Source: a virus. From it: DNA of 5,046 bases. The notes beneath the pieces were generated by a model. It saw only the letters and a list, made by a program, of their open reading frames with translations, was not told the origin of the DNA and did no database searches. This document shows positions 1-5,046 of this stretch, piece after piece (position 1 is the stretch's first letter; the number at the start of each line of letters is the position of its first letter). The translations under genes and the position numbers were made by a program. The stretch is taken from the IMG/VR virus record IMGVR_UViG_3300017764_004042; one strand, written 5' to 3'.

Positions 1-123
1 ATGATGAGGGAGAATTCACAGGCAAACTAGTTACAGCAAACAAAGGGGTTGTCTTAGCACCGTATGAAAGGAGACAATACCAAAGGGTAATTGGAACTTT
101 GAATCAACAGATTGATGCTCTCA
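1..123. repeat. Terminal direct repeat, copy 1 (exact duplicate of 4924..5046); circularisation overlap
   Basis: Compared base by base. atgatgagggagaattcacaggcaaactagttacagc...caacagattgatgctctca occurs at both window ends in the same orientation, with no mismatch seen. Implies a unit length of 4923 bp. Confidence 0.95.
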
Positions 124-185
124 AGGCTGAGAGAGACGCTCTCCGCTCTAATAGGTTCAAGTTTTGGAAAAAGATACCTCAATAG
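1..185 (+). CDS. 3' part of the junction-spanning gene (same gene as 4779..5046): putative ribbon-helix-helix plus coiled-coil DNA-binding protein
   Basis: The frame with codons at 3-5, 6-8 and so on is open from the window start to TAG at 183-185, and is in phase with the ORF that runs off the 3' end. The joined ORF (4779..4923 + 1..185) is 330 nt and encodes 109 aa. The C-terminal part YERRQYQRVIGTLNQQIDALKAERDALRSNRF looks like a coiled coil. Confidence 0.7.
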   Translation, partial: DEGEFTGKLVTANKGVVLAPYERRQYQRVIGTLNQQIDALKAERDALRSNRFKFWKKIPQ

Positions 186-604: not shown

Positions 605-1837
605 TCAGAATTTAATAGACCATGCAACTTGATTTATTTTGTTTAATTGGTTGTCTGCTTTTGTAAATGAAGCCGGTAAACTTGAGGCTGTGCTGGTGGA
701 TCTAATACAATTGTAAACTGTACCGTTGTAATGACTTAACCCTAAACAAGCAGCCATTGAAGCGCGTGGGACAGTGCTGACATTAGGTCCAGCGCTACCT
801 GTCATAACAATCGCCATCCAATAAGTTTGACCTTGAGTTATTGAAACTGAACTGGTGAAGGTTGTTTGAGTATACAAATCCGCGCCACCGTTCACATCTA
901 ATGTTACTGAACCTTGTAAAGAATCGGGATAACCCTCTGAATCAGTATCATAAACGCCCATAATTAGAGTATCTTTACTAGTATTTGTTACACCCGTTCT
1001 AATTGTAATTTCAGATAAAGTACCCGTTTTATTTGCTATAAATCTATGATAAACTACATATTCATCTTGAACCGCATTATTCAAAGTGTAGTCCATTAAA
1101 CAATTAATATCCCACGGTTGAAACCTAGAATATGTCCCGTCTAATTGAGCGGTTATGGGTTGGAATGCTAATGTTGTTGATCCCCCACCACTCGCCGCCG
1201 TTGATTGAGTTGTTCCGTCGGGAAATGTCAGGCCACCAGAAGCACTTGATACATCCAAGACAAATGAAGCAGATCCGCCTTTAACTTTCAATTTCTGATT
1301 TTCATCACAAATCAAACTAACTGCCTTTGTTGCTGAAGAAATATTGATTTCTGCATCACCAGAAGAAGCAACTAAAGTAAACGTGTTTGTTTTGTTTGTG
1401 GCTAGTAAACCTGTAGCAGATAAAACACCGGCTACGTTGTATTGGATCTGGCCGTCTGCGCCGCCGGGTGTTGCAGATATTGTCATATCATCGTTAGCGC
1501 CCGCACCATGAGCCATTGAAATGTTATTACCGACTACTAATTTACGTGCTGCTGTTAATGCTGTTGGGACTGTTCCTTGATCGTATGCCAATAAATAATC
1601 CGCATCAGTAGGCGCACCACCCGATCCACCGCTTAGAAACCCATCCCAATCACCACGAACCGCCATCCTAGCAAGTTGAACAAGCACTAATCTTCTCAAT
1701 TCATCTTCATTCTCTGGTTCAATGAATAGTTTTTCTGCTACACCTTGAAACTGAGCATACGATAAATTCTCTAGATCGGTCTCTTTTAGTAATTCATATA
1801 TCCTACTGGACCAATTATTTGTATCTGGTAACGGCAT
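605..1837 (-). CDS. 410-aa putative spike / fibre (receptor-binding) protein: N-terminal anchoring module, Gly linker, beta-rich repeat region, C-terminal beta-sandwich-like domain
   Basis: The ORF track gives 605..1870 with a TTG start. I prefer ATG at 1837 (MPLPDTNNWSSRIY...) for two reasons: it parallels the MPLPNAERKSSRIY start of the 72-aa paralogue, and it has GAGTTGAT 4 nt upstream. A linker SGGSGGAP follows the module. The Ser/Thr/Gly/Ala-rich beta region contains LTFPDGTTQSTA, a motif of the kind seen in tail-fibre and glycoprotein repeats. The C-terminal ~180 aa (YHRFIANKTGTLSEITIRTG...GQTYWMAIVM) has a jelly-roll or lectin-like alternating pattern. Confidence 0.85.
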   Translation of the reverse strand: MPLPDTNNWSSRIYELLKETDLENLSYAQFQGVAEKLFIEPENEDELRRLVLVQLARMAVRGDWDGFLSGGSGGAPTDADYLLAYDQGTVPTALTAARKLVVGNNISMAHGAGANDDMTISATPGGADGQIQYNVAGVLSATGLLATNKTNTFTLVASSGDAEINISSATKAVSLICDENQKLKVKGGSASFVLDVSSASGGLTFPDGTTQSTAASGGGSTTLAFQPITAQLDGTYSRFQPWDINCLMDYTLNNAVQDEYVVYHRFIANKTGTLSEITIRTGVTNTSKDTLIMGVYDTDSEGYPDSLQGSVTLDVNGGADLYTQTTFTSSVSITQGQTYWMAIVMTGSAGPNVSTVPRASMAACLGLSHYNGTVYNCIRSTSTASSLPASFTKADNQLNKINQVAWSIKF

Positions 1838-1848
1838 TTTAATCAACT

Positions 1849-2067
1849 CTATGTCAGGAATCCATCCCAATCACCTTTACAGGCTGTGATTGCGAACTTA
1901 ATTAGTACTAATCTTCGTAACTCATCCTCATTCAACTGCATAACGTCTAACGGTTTGCCGACGTTATCAATCGTGGGATTTTCACCGCTTGCGATCTCTT
2001 CAAGCGTTTTACCTTGCATGATAGGATAAATCCTTGAGGACTTCCTTTCAGCATTAGGTAACGGCAT
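1849..2067 (-). CDS. 72-aa protein, free-standing paralogue of the N-terminal module of the 410-aa spike protein
   Basis: ATG at 2067 with AGTGAT SD-like motif upstream. Residues shared with the spike N-terminus: MPLP, SSRIY, NEDELRRLVL, GDWDGFL. The ORF stops exactly where the spike protein continues into its Gly linker. Confidence 0.8.
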   Translation of the reverse strand: MPLPNAERKSSRIYPIMQGKTLEEIASGENPTIDNVGKPLDVMQLNEDELRRLVLIKFAITACKGDWDGFLT

Positions 2068-2955: not shown

Positions 2956-3390
2956 TCAAAGTTTGAAACCTGCCCCTAATGGTTTGAATATGTTGCGATT
3001 TACATTTGCTATAGGTCTGCGAAGTAATTTTCTGCCTAGACGAAAACCGATTCCTATTCCTAAAGACTGCACTGCCATTGCTTGATAGTTGTTCATGAAG
3101 TTGTTTTGAACAATTCCAAATGCTTGATCTGGCGCTGAGACTATATCAGCCAAAGAGATCTGGCCGGCACCTACTTCCATAGTTACCATACCAACACCTG
3201 CGCCACCGAATCCGGTCTTGTAACCTAGATCGGCACCACCTGTTACGAATCCAACGGGAGATGTCCCCATTAATCCTTGGGATAATACATTAGCATAAGC
3301 ATAACTTTCTGCTACATTCAATAGTGAAGTCGCTCGACTTCTGCGTGGGCTTCTTGACTTTTTTCTGCGGGCCATGCTGAGATCGGCCAT
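2956..3390 (-). CDS. 144-aa protein with Arg/Lys-rich N-terminus and Gly-rich hydrophobic segments; candidate genome-binding or membrane-associated structural protein
   Basis: First gene after the 3391-3480 spacer, with no SD. N-terminus MADLSMARRKKSRSPRRSRATS, followed by GFVTGGADLGYKTGFGGAGVGMVTMEVGAG and LGIGIGFRLG. An alternative start at Met6 (ATG at 3375) would be leaderless relative to a TATAAA element at 3399-3404. Confidence 0.8.
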   Translation of the reverse strand: MADLSMARRKKSRSPRRSRATSLLNVAESYAYANVLSQGLMGTSPVGFVTGGADLGYKTGFGGAGVGMVTMEVGAGQISLADIVSAPDQAFGIVQNNFMNNYQAMAVQSLGIGIGFRLGRKLLRRPIANVNRNIFKPLGAGFKL

Positions 3391-3834: not shown

Positions 3835-3955
3835 AATCCTTTTAATTGGCTTCGTGTGCGAATATACATATTCACAGCCGGTAGGCTGCCGCTTGAAAGG
3901 AATTGAGAGCGTCAAAAAACTGCGTTTTTTTCCTGCCGGCTGAACGCCGGATGTA

Positions 3956-3962
3956 TTATATA
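3956..3962 (+). promoter_or_regulatory. TATA-box-like / -10-like element for the plus-strand operon
   Basis: TTATATA is centred about 26-29 nt upstream of the ATG at 3988, and that ATG has no SD. This geometry fits an archaeal TATA box driving a leaderless or near-leaderless mRNA. It could also be read as a bacterial -10 (TATTAT/TATATA), but I found no convincing -35. Confidence 0.4.
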
Positions 3963-3987
3963 GCCCCTACGGGCCAAAATCGATATT

Positions 3988-4116
3988 ATGGAGACACGCG
4001 ACATTAACGCAGACGCAGAAACAGTTGAAATAAAACGCCATTTGAAAGCATTAGGGGTAAAAGTATCCGGATCAAGAAAAGAATGTTTAGAAAGATTGCA
4101 GGAATCGATATTATGA
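3988..4116 (+). CDS. 42-aa stand-alone SAP / HeH-motif DNA-binding protein
   Basis: Hand translation: METRDINADAETVEIKRHLKALGVKVSGSRKECLERLQESIL. The segment EIKRHLKALGVKVSGSRKECLERL matches the helix-extended loop-helix SAP pattern (ELRxxLxxRGLxxxGxKxxLixRL) nearly position for position. The stop TGA at 4114-4116 overlaps the next ATG (ATGA). Confidence 0.7.
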   Translation: METRDINADAETVEIKRHLKALGVKVSGSRKECLERLQESIL

Positions 4117-4247
4117 AGAGGGACTATCGGTTTGACGACAAGTGTTGTATTTGCAGAATACATCAAAGATACAAAGATGAAAAAATGAGATTATGGGGCA
4201 TTTGTGAAAAATGTAAAGACATGATTAACGGAGATTGGATATTATGA
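4113..4247 (+). CDS. 44-aa zinc-ribbon micro-protein (CxxC-x16-CxxC)
   Basis: Hand translation: MKRDYRFDDKCCICRIHQRYKDEKMRLWGICEKCKDMINGDWIL. Both the start and the stop overlap neighbouring genes in ATGA fashion. Two CxxC pairs are spaced as in a zinc ribbon. Confidence 0.65.
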   Translation: MKRDYRFDDKCCICRIHQRYKDEKMRLWGICEKCKDMINGDWIL

Positions 4248-4366
4248 ATCTAAGATGTTCTAAGTGTCAGTTAGTGTTTCTAGTCAACACCTTTGAAGAT
4301 GTAAGGATCATACAGGCTATGTCTTGTCCAGAAGGAGCAGGTCATAAATTAAGTGAGGTGGCATAA
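4244..4366 (+). CDS. 40-aa putative zinc-binding micro-protein (CxxC ... C-x5-H)
   Basis: Hand translation: MNLRCSKCQLVFLVNTFEDVRIIQAMSCPEGAGHKLSEVA. The stop TAA overlaps the methyltransferase ATG (TAATG). The 3' end of the gene carries the GAGGTG SD for the methyltransferase. Confidence 0.6.
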   Translation: MNLRCSKCQLVFLVNTFEDVRIIQAMSCPEGAGHKLSEVA

Positions 4367-4782
4367 TGTCAAGTGATGATTACAGGACAGACCAATGGAT
4401 TCTTGATCTCTTTCCTAATTTCTTTGACCCTTGCCCATTCAAAGGCATTCACTTGAAACATAACGGACTGCATATGTCATGGAATTATGCAGATTATGAC
4501 GGCGTGTTTGTTAATCCACCTTATTCAGACCCGAACCCTTGGGTTAAGAAAGCAATACAAGAACAGAAAGATGCAAGAAGAAGAGCATATGACCCCGAAG
4601 ATGAGCAAGAGATTTGGTCGGCTGGTACTATTGTTATGCTTCTAAAGCACGACACATCAACAGAATGGTATAGATTGTTACATGAAGCAGACGCTAAGTT
4701 TTTGCTTGTTAATGGTCGTCTAAAACATCAAACAGGTAAGTCTTGCGCTTTTCCTTCAGTTTTGGCGGTGATGTGCTTATGA
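4366..4782 (+). CDS. Phage-type DNA N6-adenine methyltransferase (Dam-like, PF05869 / TIGR01712-type architecture)
   Basis: Contains the catalytic NPPY motif (DGVFVNPPYSD) followed by PWVKKAIQE. Other family-typical blocks are DQWILDLFPNFFDPCP, TIVMLLKHDTSTEWY, LVNGRLKH and AFPSVLAVM. SD GAGGTG lies 6 nt upstream of the ATG. Confidence 0.92.
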   Translation: MSSDDYRTDQWILDLFPNFFDPCPFKGIHLKHNGLHMSWNYADYDGVFVNPPYSDPNPWVKKAIQEQKDARRRAYDPEDEQEIWSAGTIVMLLKHDTSTEWYRLLHEADAKFLLVNGRLKHQTGKSCAFPSVLAVMCL

Positions 4783-5046
4783 GTAAAATATTACATTCGT
4801 TTACTTTACATAAGCATACATCTGAGTTGCTACGATCTAAATCCAAAAAAGGGTATATGTCTGACAATGTATCAACTGCAATTGAATGGTATTACACTTC
4901 ACCGATCTGGACAAAAGAGCGAGATGATGAGGGAGAATTCACAGGCAAACTAGTTACAGCAAACAAAGGGGTTGTCTTAGCACCGTATGAAAGGAGACAA
5001 TACCAAAGGGTAATTGGAACTTTGAATCAACAGATTGATGCTCTCA
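4779..5046 (+). CDS. 5' part of the junction-spanning gene: putative ribbon-helix-helix (Arc/MetJ/CopG-like) plus coiled-coil DNA-binding protein, 109 aa when circularised
   Basis: ATG at 4779 overlaps the methyltransferase stop (ATGA). The N-terminus MSKILHSFTLHKHTSELLRSKSKKGYMSDNVSTAIEWYY fits a strand, helix, turn (G), helix RHH pattern. The ORF is still open at the window end and continues in phase at 124-185. Confidence 0.75.
   Translation, partial: MSKILHSFTLHKHTSELLRSKSKKGYMSDNVSTAIEWYYTSPIWTKERDDEGEFTGKLVTANKGVVLAPYERRQYQRVIGTLNQQIDAL
4924..5046. repeat. Terminal direct repeat, copy 2 (exact duplicate of 1..123)
   Basis: See copy 1. The repeat falls inside a coding sequence, as expected for an assembly or permutation overlap rather than a functional LTR. 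Confidence 0.95.

Follow-up and report, generated by a model that had tools for sequence, protein, structure and literature searches.

Probable capture of a SAP micro-gene, with duplication of a start junction, in the accessory operon of a small marine virus

Why should three consecutive genes of only 42, 44 and 40 codons begin within copies of the same short sequence? The question is raised by IMG/VR virus record IMGVR_UViG_3300017764_004042, a stretch of 5,046 nucleotides (nt) referred to below, at its full length, as the window. Here three overlapping open reading frames (ORFs) – a SAP micro-gene and two zinc-ribbon micro-genes, zr1 and zr2 – run into the gene of a Dam-type DNA methyltransferase (MTase; Table 1). 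A first-pass annotation, made from the letters of the sequence, had noticed the shared motif (the 13-mer AATCGATATTATG) and proposed a shared initiation context, a protein-binding site or a trace of serial duplication. We consider it probable, and hold this view with good confidence, that the SAP micro-gene was acquired by the lineage of the window, and that the start junction was duplicated with it, inside a coupled accessory operon (3988-4782, continuing to 185 on the circle). The 13-mer would then be mainly a duplicated start junction left by gene capture, and not a shared regulatory signal.

The first and last 123 nt of the window are identical, which indicates a complete circular genome of ~4923 bp. 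With its minus-strand 228-amino-acid (aa) protein as query, 44 IMG/VR contigs of 4.2-5.9 kb were recovered (relatives L001-L044), most of them with terminal repeats; together they form a marine family of mostly circular genomes. The 228-aa protein is 73-97% identical to that of the window in 43 relatives and 49% identical in the most divergent, L043, where no operon gene was matched and the junction was not locatable. Where 44 compared genomes are mentioned, these are the window and 43 relatives. A common plan is evident in 43 of the 44 relatives: a micro-gene region, bounded by a divergently transcribed membrane-protein gene and a conserved 109-aa gene, in which a conserved leader of ~190-200 nt is followed by two to five chained micro-genes. 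PDB sequence searches with the structural proteins were empty.

A start junction repeated around a 125-nt insertion

AATCGATATTATG occurs exactly at two sites, 3978 and 4103, and no other site matches it with one mismatch or fewer; the expected number is 0.01 and none of 200 shuffled sequences reached two. The shorter form GATATTATG is found at 3982, 4107 and 4238 (expected 0.06; none of 200 shuffles reached three). The counts thus confirm both the identity of the 13-mers and the return of the 9-mer as first described. The repeat also extends beyond these words: copies 1 and 2 agree over 17 nt with one mismatch, and all three copies over 16 nt with two mismatches.

What separates copies 1 and 2 becomes visible when the window is aligned with nine relatives (MAFFT). 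The relatives carry a single junction copy, gGAATCGATATTATGGAG, between leader and first gene, and the window carries in addition a 125-nt insertion, equal in length to the spacing of the repeat; because it is flanked by the 13-nt repeat, the insertion can be placed equally well in either of two positions (Table 1). The pattern extends beyond the aligned genomes. The leader/first-gene junction reads AATC[GA]ATA[TA]TATG in the first genes of 42 of 43 relatives, where it is single-copy, and copy 2 is present in none of the 44. The 13-mer, whose conservation the annotation had asked to be checked, is thus conserved as one junction between leader and first gene.

The sequences that follow the copies point in the same direction. 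After copy 1 (to ~4002) the window reads ATG GAG aca CGC GAC, which is the zr1 start of L001, L018 and L012 (ATG GAG CGC GAC) plus one codon; after copy 2 it reads ATGaAGAGGGAC, and ATG aAG AGG GAC TAT is the zr1 start of L030 and L017. Copy 3 is of another kind. It consists of the final codons of one allele of zr1, GAT TGG ATA TTA TGA (D-W-I-L-stop), and is found in every genome with this allele A (L001, L012, L017, L018, L019 and L030), whatever gene follows. Allele B ends in GAT TGG CTA TGA and has GATTGGCTATGA in place of copy 3. L001, L018 and L030 are already in a two-copy state, with zr1 allele A ending 131 nt from the leader junction. Serial duplication, the third of the original suggestions, thus applies to copies 1 and 2, where the junction is duplicated around the SAP insertion; copy 3 is the coding end of zr1 allele A.

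If, on the other hand, the repeated GATATTATG and AATCGATATTATG were a functional cis-element, selected independently at three gene starts, it might serve as an initiation context for starts that lack a Shine-Dalgarno (SD) sequence, as the binding site of a regulator, or as the -10 element (TATTAT) of internal promoters. In its favor, a start codon ends each of the three copies, and their chance expectation is only 0.01-0.06; the leader copy is kept across the family; promoter-like consensus matches place TATTAT at 4109-4114 and 4240-4245; and the 16-nt likeness of copy 3 to the leader junction is seen in several relatives, too. Nevertheless we regard such an element, in all three forms taken together, as improbable. 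Copy 2 is missing from every relative, and copy 3 appears solely with zr1 allele A, as coding sequence; zr2 in relatives is preceded instead by GGCTATG, GGTTATG, GATTGAATG, GAAGAATG or TATTG, that is, by at least five other junctions. These observations speak against a shared initiation context and a protein-binding site alike. As for promoters, the matches score 9/12, seven were found where 2.9 are expected in the region, and a -10 element overlapping an ATG is useless for that same gene.

Two more specific candidates were rejected. The ATCGAT palindrome within the motif is ruled out as a site by the AATCAAT or AATTGAT found in relatives, and internal promoters using TATTAT are ruled out by matches at background level.

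The leader itself (3905-3987) contains the inverted repeats AAAAAACtgcGTTTTTT (~3914-3930) and CCGGCtgaacGCCGG (3936-3950), a conserved TATTATATAG box and a stem, CCCctacGGG (3964-3973). Leader stems are kept in relatives through changes on both sides (GCGGC/GCCGC, CCTaatAGG). The repeats and stem could be a promoter or operator, or structure in the 5' untranslated region.

Table 1. Junction copies, genes, SD elements and the parts of the SAP micro-gene.
Feature	Position	Strand	Remarks
Junction copy 1	3978-3990	+	end of conserved leader and start codon of first gene; no upstream SD
Junction copy 2	4103-4115	+	overlap (ATGA) of SAP stop and zr1 start
Junction copy 3	4238-4246 (16-mer 4233-4248, 14/16 identical to copy 2)	+	last codons of zr1 allele A (D-W-I-L-stop), overlapping zr2 start
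125-nt insertion	3991-4115, equally placeable at 3978-4102	+	MAFFT alignment of window and nine relatives; repeat spacing 125 nt
SAP micro-gene	ATG 3988 to TGA 4116	+	42 aa
SAP codons 1-5	from 3988	+	resident zr1 start
SAP core, codons ~10-39		+	homologous to first gene of ~15-kb phage type
SAP last three codons and stop (SIL*)		+	read from duplicated leader junction
AGGA, SD-like	4100-4103	+	9 nt before zr1 ATG; joint of SAP 3' end and leader copy (CAG GAA)
zr1	ATG 4113 to TGA 4247	+	44 aa
GGAG, SD-like	4230-4233	+	10 nt before zr2 ATG, within zr1 codons
zr2	ATG 4244 to TAA 4366	+	40 aa
GAGGTG, SD	4355-4360	+	5 nt before MTase ATG; encoded by C-terminal zr2 codons S-E-V
Dam-type MTase	4366-4782	+	138 aa, predicted
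Conserved 109-aa gene, end of chain	4779-5046, past window end into 123-nt terminal repeat; stop 183-185	+	in 43/44 relatives

The SAP micro-gene and its foreign homologues

The product of the first gene scores 26.4 bits against Pfam family PF02037 (gathering score 23.9), with residues 13-40 aligned to profile positions 8-35 of 37, which bears out the SAP/HeH motif read from the sequence at first sight; the protein probably binds DNA. The ORF was not found in any of the 44 relatives. Homologues of 39-43 aa are found instead in marine contigs from ENA and JGI that measure 10-15 kb (L045-L051; also P0001), and that of L049 scores 28.1 bits against the same profile. In L045-L051 the SAP gene opens another micro-gene chain, joined by GAGGTGATTGAATGA, and is followed by zinc-ribbon micro-proteins and a Dam-like methyltransferase; this phage type, of ~15 kb, encodes a DNA polymerase and a terminase-like protein. 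The SAP gene of the window shares a run of 27 identical nt with these homologues and is 83-86% identical to them at the nucleotide level, and the ratio of nonsynonymous to synonymous substitution (dN/dS) of the core, measured against them, is 0.09-0.24. Back-translated peptide patterns found nothing in IMG/VR or JGI metagenomes, a degenerate DNA pattern returned three true loci and one chance match (L052), and an exact-sequence look-up of the window protein gave no record.

Comparison with the homologues shows the SAP gene to be a chimera, with the three parts listed in Table 1. Foreign homology begins at CAGAAACAGT and ends at ...TTGCAGGA; beyond this point the foreign genes continue with GGTGATTGAATGA and the window with ATCGATATTATGA. 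The bases CAGGA are common to the joint in the window and to the leader of several relatives (gaCAGGAATCG).

These features suggest how the capture may have proceeded. A SAP core, homologous to the first early gene of the ~15-kb, DNA-polymerase-encoding phage type, would have been joined into the head of the operon by illegitimate recombination at the level of microhomology. On its 5' side the core would have been fused, in frame, with the opening codons of zr1; on its 3' side it would have been linked, at CAGGA, with a duplicate of the leader junction, and this duplicate would supply the tail of the SAP protein (SIL-stop), the AGGA element and the ATGA overlap with zr1. The 13-mer repeat is on this account a duplicated junction. 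Gain by the lineage of the window appears the parsimonious direction of transfer, since SAP is present in four diverged genomes of the ~15-kb type and in one of 45 genomes of the present family.

Could the SAP gene instead be ancestral, and have been lost from the relatives by deletion between the 13-nt direct repeats? Direct repeats of 13-17 nt around 125 nt are the expected substrate for precise recA-independent deletion, the family tree is unrooted, and PMC3029335 states the same ambiguity for the Island3 gene discussed below. Against this, a single junction is present in all relatives where it can be located (all but L043), and the homologues are the conserved first gene of another phage type and differ in their N- and C-termini. 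The window SAP, moreover, starts with the first codons of zr1 and ends in leader sequence, which is the pattern of fusion into an existing zr1 start. We consider ancestral presence followed by loss quite unlikely.

An assembly artefact, in which the SAP segment is a chimera of two co-occurring phages, is very unlikely. Both phage types do occur in marine metagenomes and the arrangement is known only once; but the flanking repeat of 13-17 nt is shorter than the usual assembly k-mers, the core differs as noted from any sampled donor, and both joints keep reading frames, stop/start overlap and SD, unlike a random chimera.

Several points weigh against capture with junction duplication. The insertion is known from one genome only; ~13-21 nt after the zr1-like start are without any match, and the sampled homologues are only 83-86% identical. 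Copy 3 matches the leader junction at 14 of 16 positions (chance ~0.01) and is left unexplained by the SAP event: an older capture of this kind may have left it as a relic, or the likeness may be coincidental. To these may be added that zr1 and zr2 have no detectable relative outside the virus family and no structural match, that coupling and SD use in the chain are read from the sequence, and that the searches for virus and host were negative. GenBank phages gave no match to the whole genome, the 228-aa protein or the 411-aa protein discussed below, and 185,579 GTDB genomes gave none to the 228-aa protein or zr2; because nothing similar is found in either, the family is uncultured.

The two phage types have other sequences in common. 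A stretch of 57 aa in the 421-aa ORF of the window (605-1870, minus strand) has 54% identity with a segment of a 768-aa protein encoded in L049 (850-3156, minus strand); the ORF was queried from an internal ATG, as 411 aa, and the shared stretch is residues 159-215 in that numbering. It may represent a shared receptor-binding module, which would hint at a common host. The methyltransferases of the window and of the ~15-kb type are 31% identical, and the junction GTGATTGAATG is present in both phage types, solely inside these operons. A common host for both is plausible.

The 421-aa protein has a paralogue within the window: the product of a 72-aa ORF (1849-2067, minus strand) matches its N-terminal 70 residues with 44% identity (E 9e-19), and the two genes adjoin, with an overlap of ~20 nt.

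A more general idea, which we put forward as speculative and think rather unlikely to hold, is that the short junctions are portable linkers – each comprising SD, stop/start overlap and a few terminal codons – which would tie any incoming gene into the coupled chain and would also be hot-spots of recombination; examples would be AATCGATATTATG, GGTGATTGAATG and GAAGAAGAATG, together with the ends of zr1 and zr2. If true, micro-genes would be exchangeable cassettes in an integrase-free, integron-like pool shared among unrelated marine phage families, these families would probably infect the same host, and the window would represent a genome shortly after one such capture.

Conservation and chaining of the micro-genes

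All three micro-ORFs are genuine genes and not a non-coding leader. For zr1 and zr2 this follows from frames that are uninterrupted in relatives and from strong purifying selection: zr1 was found in 36 and zr2 in 37 of the 44 compared genomes, with no interrupted copy, so that the check proposed for the micro-ORFs in related contigs turned out in their favor.

zr1 is normally the first gene of the operon and, being missing from 8 of the 44 genomes, is dispensable. Its dN/dS is 0.12, and its variable sites fall 16/13/27 on the three codon positions. The four-cysteine pattern described for it, CxxC-x16-CxxC, is present as C11-x2-C14-x16-C31-x2-C34; these cysteines are invariant in 19 aligned sequences and in the 35 genomes from which the pattern CCxC...WGICExCK was recovered, and the complete set of invariant residues is K10, C11, C14, D22, W28, G29, I30, C31, C34, K35, I38 and W42. 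A longer, 54-aa version starting from ATG 4083 is ruled out, since relatives begin at the equivalent of 4113. No family was assigned in Pfam, PHROG or NCBIfam, and a PDB profile search gave a best E value of 0.81. A word-index protein search produced no candidate, an exhaustive HMMER search only two members of the same virus family, and a single-sequence AlphaFold2 (AF2) model, with a predicted local distance difference test score (pLDDT) of 52.7, is unusable.

Conservation is greater still in zr2, the most conserved gene of the operon, which always has 40 codons; dN/dS is 0.043 and, of the 40 positions of each kind, 12 first, 9 second and 31 third positions vary. In L012 and L027 it starts with the TTG of a TTGA overlap. 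The CxxC...CPx4H pattern is likewise as described: C5-x2-C8 ... C28-P-x4-H34, a C2-CH ligand set in which C5, C8, C28 and H34 are invariant. The AF2 model (pLDDT 87.6) shows a beta-hairpin, a helix (17-25) and a strand, so that conserved predicted metal ligands coincide with a compact fold, as modelled. Foldseek comparison with the PDB returned generic zinc modules only (best E 3.4), protein searches only family members with 70-95% identity, Pfam and NCBIfam nothing, and a PDB sequence profile search no match below E 0.5.

The first-pass annotation had given all three proteins a nucleic-acid-binding signature. This stands for SAP; for zr1 and zr2 it does not, as a zinc ribbon alone does not imply nucleic-acid binding. 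Both zr1 and zr2 have long belonged to the operon; they are predicted zinc-binding micro-proteins under purifying selection.

Suppose, however, that SAP or all three micro-ORFs were untranslated, as the structured leader of the MTase gene, or that the 84-aa antisense ORF (3912-4166, minus strand) were the real gene. The ORFs are indeed very short and the first lacks an SD; zr1 is nearly missing from the searched protein collections, as noted; and in none of the five sequences with SAP is the antisense frame closed within the core, its wobble positions being the same as those of the sense frame, which makes the codon-position test blind between the two. But the third-position bias, the low dN/dS (0.12 and 0.04) and the intact copies in 36 and 37 genomes are difficult to reconcile with a lack of translation, and SAP exceeds a curated Pfam threshold in two diverged versions. 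The antisense stretch in the other phages is without ATG, has variable ends and shows higher dN/dS, and such an ORF is impossible in the 44 relatives without the insert. No Rfam family was matched in the region. Both forms of this explanation are extremely improbable: the two findings that were to have counted against the micro-ORFs, broken frames in conserved DNA and a genuine antisense gene, did not appear, zr1 and zr2 being uninterrupted and the 84-aa ORF not conserved.

The micro-genes are joined as first described, by stop/start overlaps whose coordinates can be read directly: ATGA at 4113-4116 (SAP/zr1), ATGA at 4244-4247 (zr1/zr2) and TAATG at 4364-4368 (zr2/MTase). The chain continues beyond the MTase gene, which overlaps the 109-aa gene by ATGA at 4779-4782. 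The description requires amendment in one respect. None of the three micro-genes was thought to have an SD, and this is true of SAP, the sole gene without one, but not of zr1 (AGGA) or zr2 (GGAG). By a simple motif count, an SD-like motif is present at -17 to -4 in 132 of 135 internal genes across the family, whereas it precedes only 15% of ATG triplets in general and only 9 of the 43 first genes; ~120 of the 135 stop/start gaps lie between -7 and +2. The family SDs sit in the C-terminal codons of the preceding gene (...SEVV/SEVA, ...EDWL, ...VIE, ...EEE). Stop/start overlap and an SD inside the upstream gene, the marks of a translationally coupled operon, are thus found together at the junctions of the window and family-wide.

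The chain is accordingly organized as though it were read by translational coupling: the last codons of each gene would double as the SD of the next, and the sole gene lacking an SD starts at the leader junction, AATCGATATTATG. A case in L036 is instructive. In its variable region (~193-225) a 9-codon zr1 stub (MDATTPEEE-stop) stands at the leader junction and is TAATG-coupled to a different, 43-aa gene. Because the stub stays coupled to the next gene, the arrangement points to the leader junction as the place where ribosomes enter the chain; it is a second case of recombination inside the first gene with the entry point preserved.

Operon content and comparison with known systems

The operon is hypervariable. 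Across the 44 genomes it holds ~34 protein families (an approximate figure, given the clustering of such short proteins), most of them Cys-rich and of 23-83 aa. The MTase of the window scores 51.7 bits against PF05869 (gathering score 28.1), matches phrog_111 and has NPPY at residues 50-53; it falls below the NCBIfam equivalog cut-off (35.7 vs 97). By these signatures it is a predicted Dam-type N6-adenine DNA methyltransferase and an optional member of the operon, as the type is present in only 5 of 44 genomes. Altogether four methyltransferase families occur (L007, L008, L013, L014, L024, L029, L033 and the window, 4366-4782): besides the Dam type, a C5-cytosine family that clears its Pfam cut-off (30.7 > 22), and two further families assigned as N6/N4-like from Pfam matches below threshold and from their DPPF and NPPF motifs. 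The three large methyltransferases always push zr1 out of the first slot, and the genomes without zr1 are exactly those in which that slot is held by a large methyltransferase or by some other gene. Because four unrelated methyltransferase families share the same slots, the role of the operon is probably anti-restriction or host takeover.

A second pattern of exclusion concerns zr2. Every genome has either zr2 (37 genomes) or an unrelated 80-aa protein (MIGLRAKEWDVICGALL..., 7 genomes), and none has both; this perfect exclusion, with one per genome, suggests functional replacement of an essential factor. Pfam and PHROG profile scans detected no replication-initiator family in any ORF of the window, and the micro-proteins had been proposed to recruit host replication or transcription factors. 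The proposal is weakest for SAP, because it is missing in all 44 relatives, and may be most tenable for zr2.

The segment 3391-3480, between two minus-strand genes, contains several TTTCCGG or TTCCGGAA-like words and is iteron-like. In the adjoining 144-aa protein (2956-3390, minus strand) the N-terminus is rich in arginine (RRKKSRSPRRSR), and a hydrophobic region rich in glycine comes after it.

Thus ORFs of 40-44 aa, of a size skipped by gene finders, are the conserved core of an accessory operon, and provide a clean and well-sampled example of micro-proteins. The window also shows how a new gene may be wired in: through the duplicated start junction the newcomer takes over the entry point, while the gene that it displaces acquires an overlap and an SD. 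In 5-kb genomes in which no replication protein is recognisable, Cys-rich micro-proteins and DNA methyltransferases of four kinds are concentrated in this operon. Most worth following up are zr2 and its mutually exclusive 80-aa substitute, with SAP as an optional extra; the wider interest lies in the exchange of micro-genes across phage families.

Phage morons, mosaic gene insertions at gene boundaries, have reportedly been described by Juhala et al. in 2000 and by Hendrix et al. Like them, the SAP insert is an extra gene between elements – leader and zr1 – that adjoin each other in related genomes, and it would have been acquired, as they were, by recombination near gene boundaries. Classical morons bring a promoter and a terminator with them. 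SAP has neither, but makes use of the start junction already present and is tied into a coupled chain: no terminator-like site was found in 3988-4400, and only weak (9/12) promoter-like matches at about background level. A parallel is gene 68 of mycobacteriophage Island3, which PMC3029335, where the background on morons and mosaic insertion is also summarised, describes as an inserted gene whose end duplicates the end of the upstream gene. This is the same kind of junction duplication as that of SAP, except that here 13-25 nt of a 5' junction are duplicated, and in Island3, as described there, ~50 bp of 3' coding sequence.

The SAP domain is said to have been defined by Aravind and Koonin (in 2000) as a helix-extended-helix DNA-binding motif, and the window protein has the canonical L-x2-L-G-x-K-x-S-G-x-K-x2-L-x2-R-L. 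The SAP domains that have been characterised form modules within larger chromatin proteins, mostly from eukaryotes, whereas the phage proteins are stand-alone, of 39-43 aa, and consist of the motif only. A search of the literature on phage SAP or zinc-ribbon micro-proteins found nothing specific. zr2 for its part resembles the Lar-like restriction alleviation proteins (phrog_6422) in being short, in its N-terminal CxxC knuckle and in adjoining methyltransferase genes, and differs from them in its C2-CH ligand set. As an assignment this was rejected: the PHROG match is not significant (E 0.044, 15.2 bits) and Pfam, NCBIfam and PDB give no support.

Coupled operons with ATGA or TAATG overlaps are familiar from trp, from ribosomal-protein operons and from the early regions of small phages. 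There, as in the chain of the window, the stop overlaps the next start and the SD lies within upstream coding sequence. What sets the present operon apart is its extreme density, with genes of 23-83 aa and 132 of 135 junctions so built, and its fast turnover, with ~34 families in 44 genomes of <6 kb. What is found here is known phage mosaicism together with known translational coupling, in a new and very small virus family.

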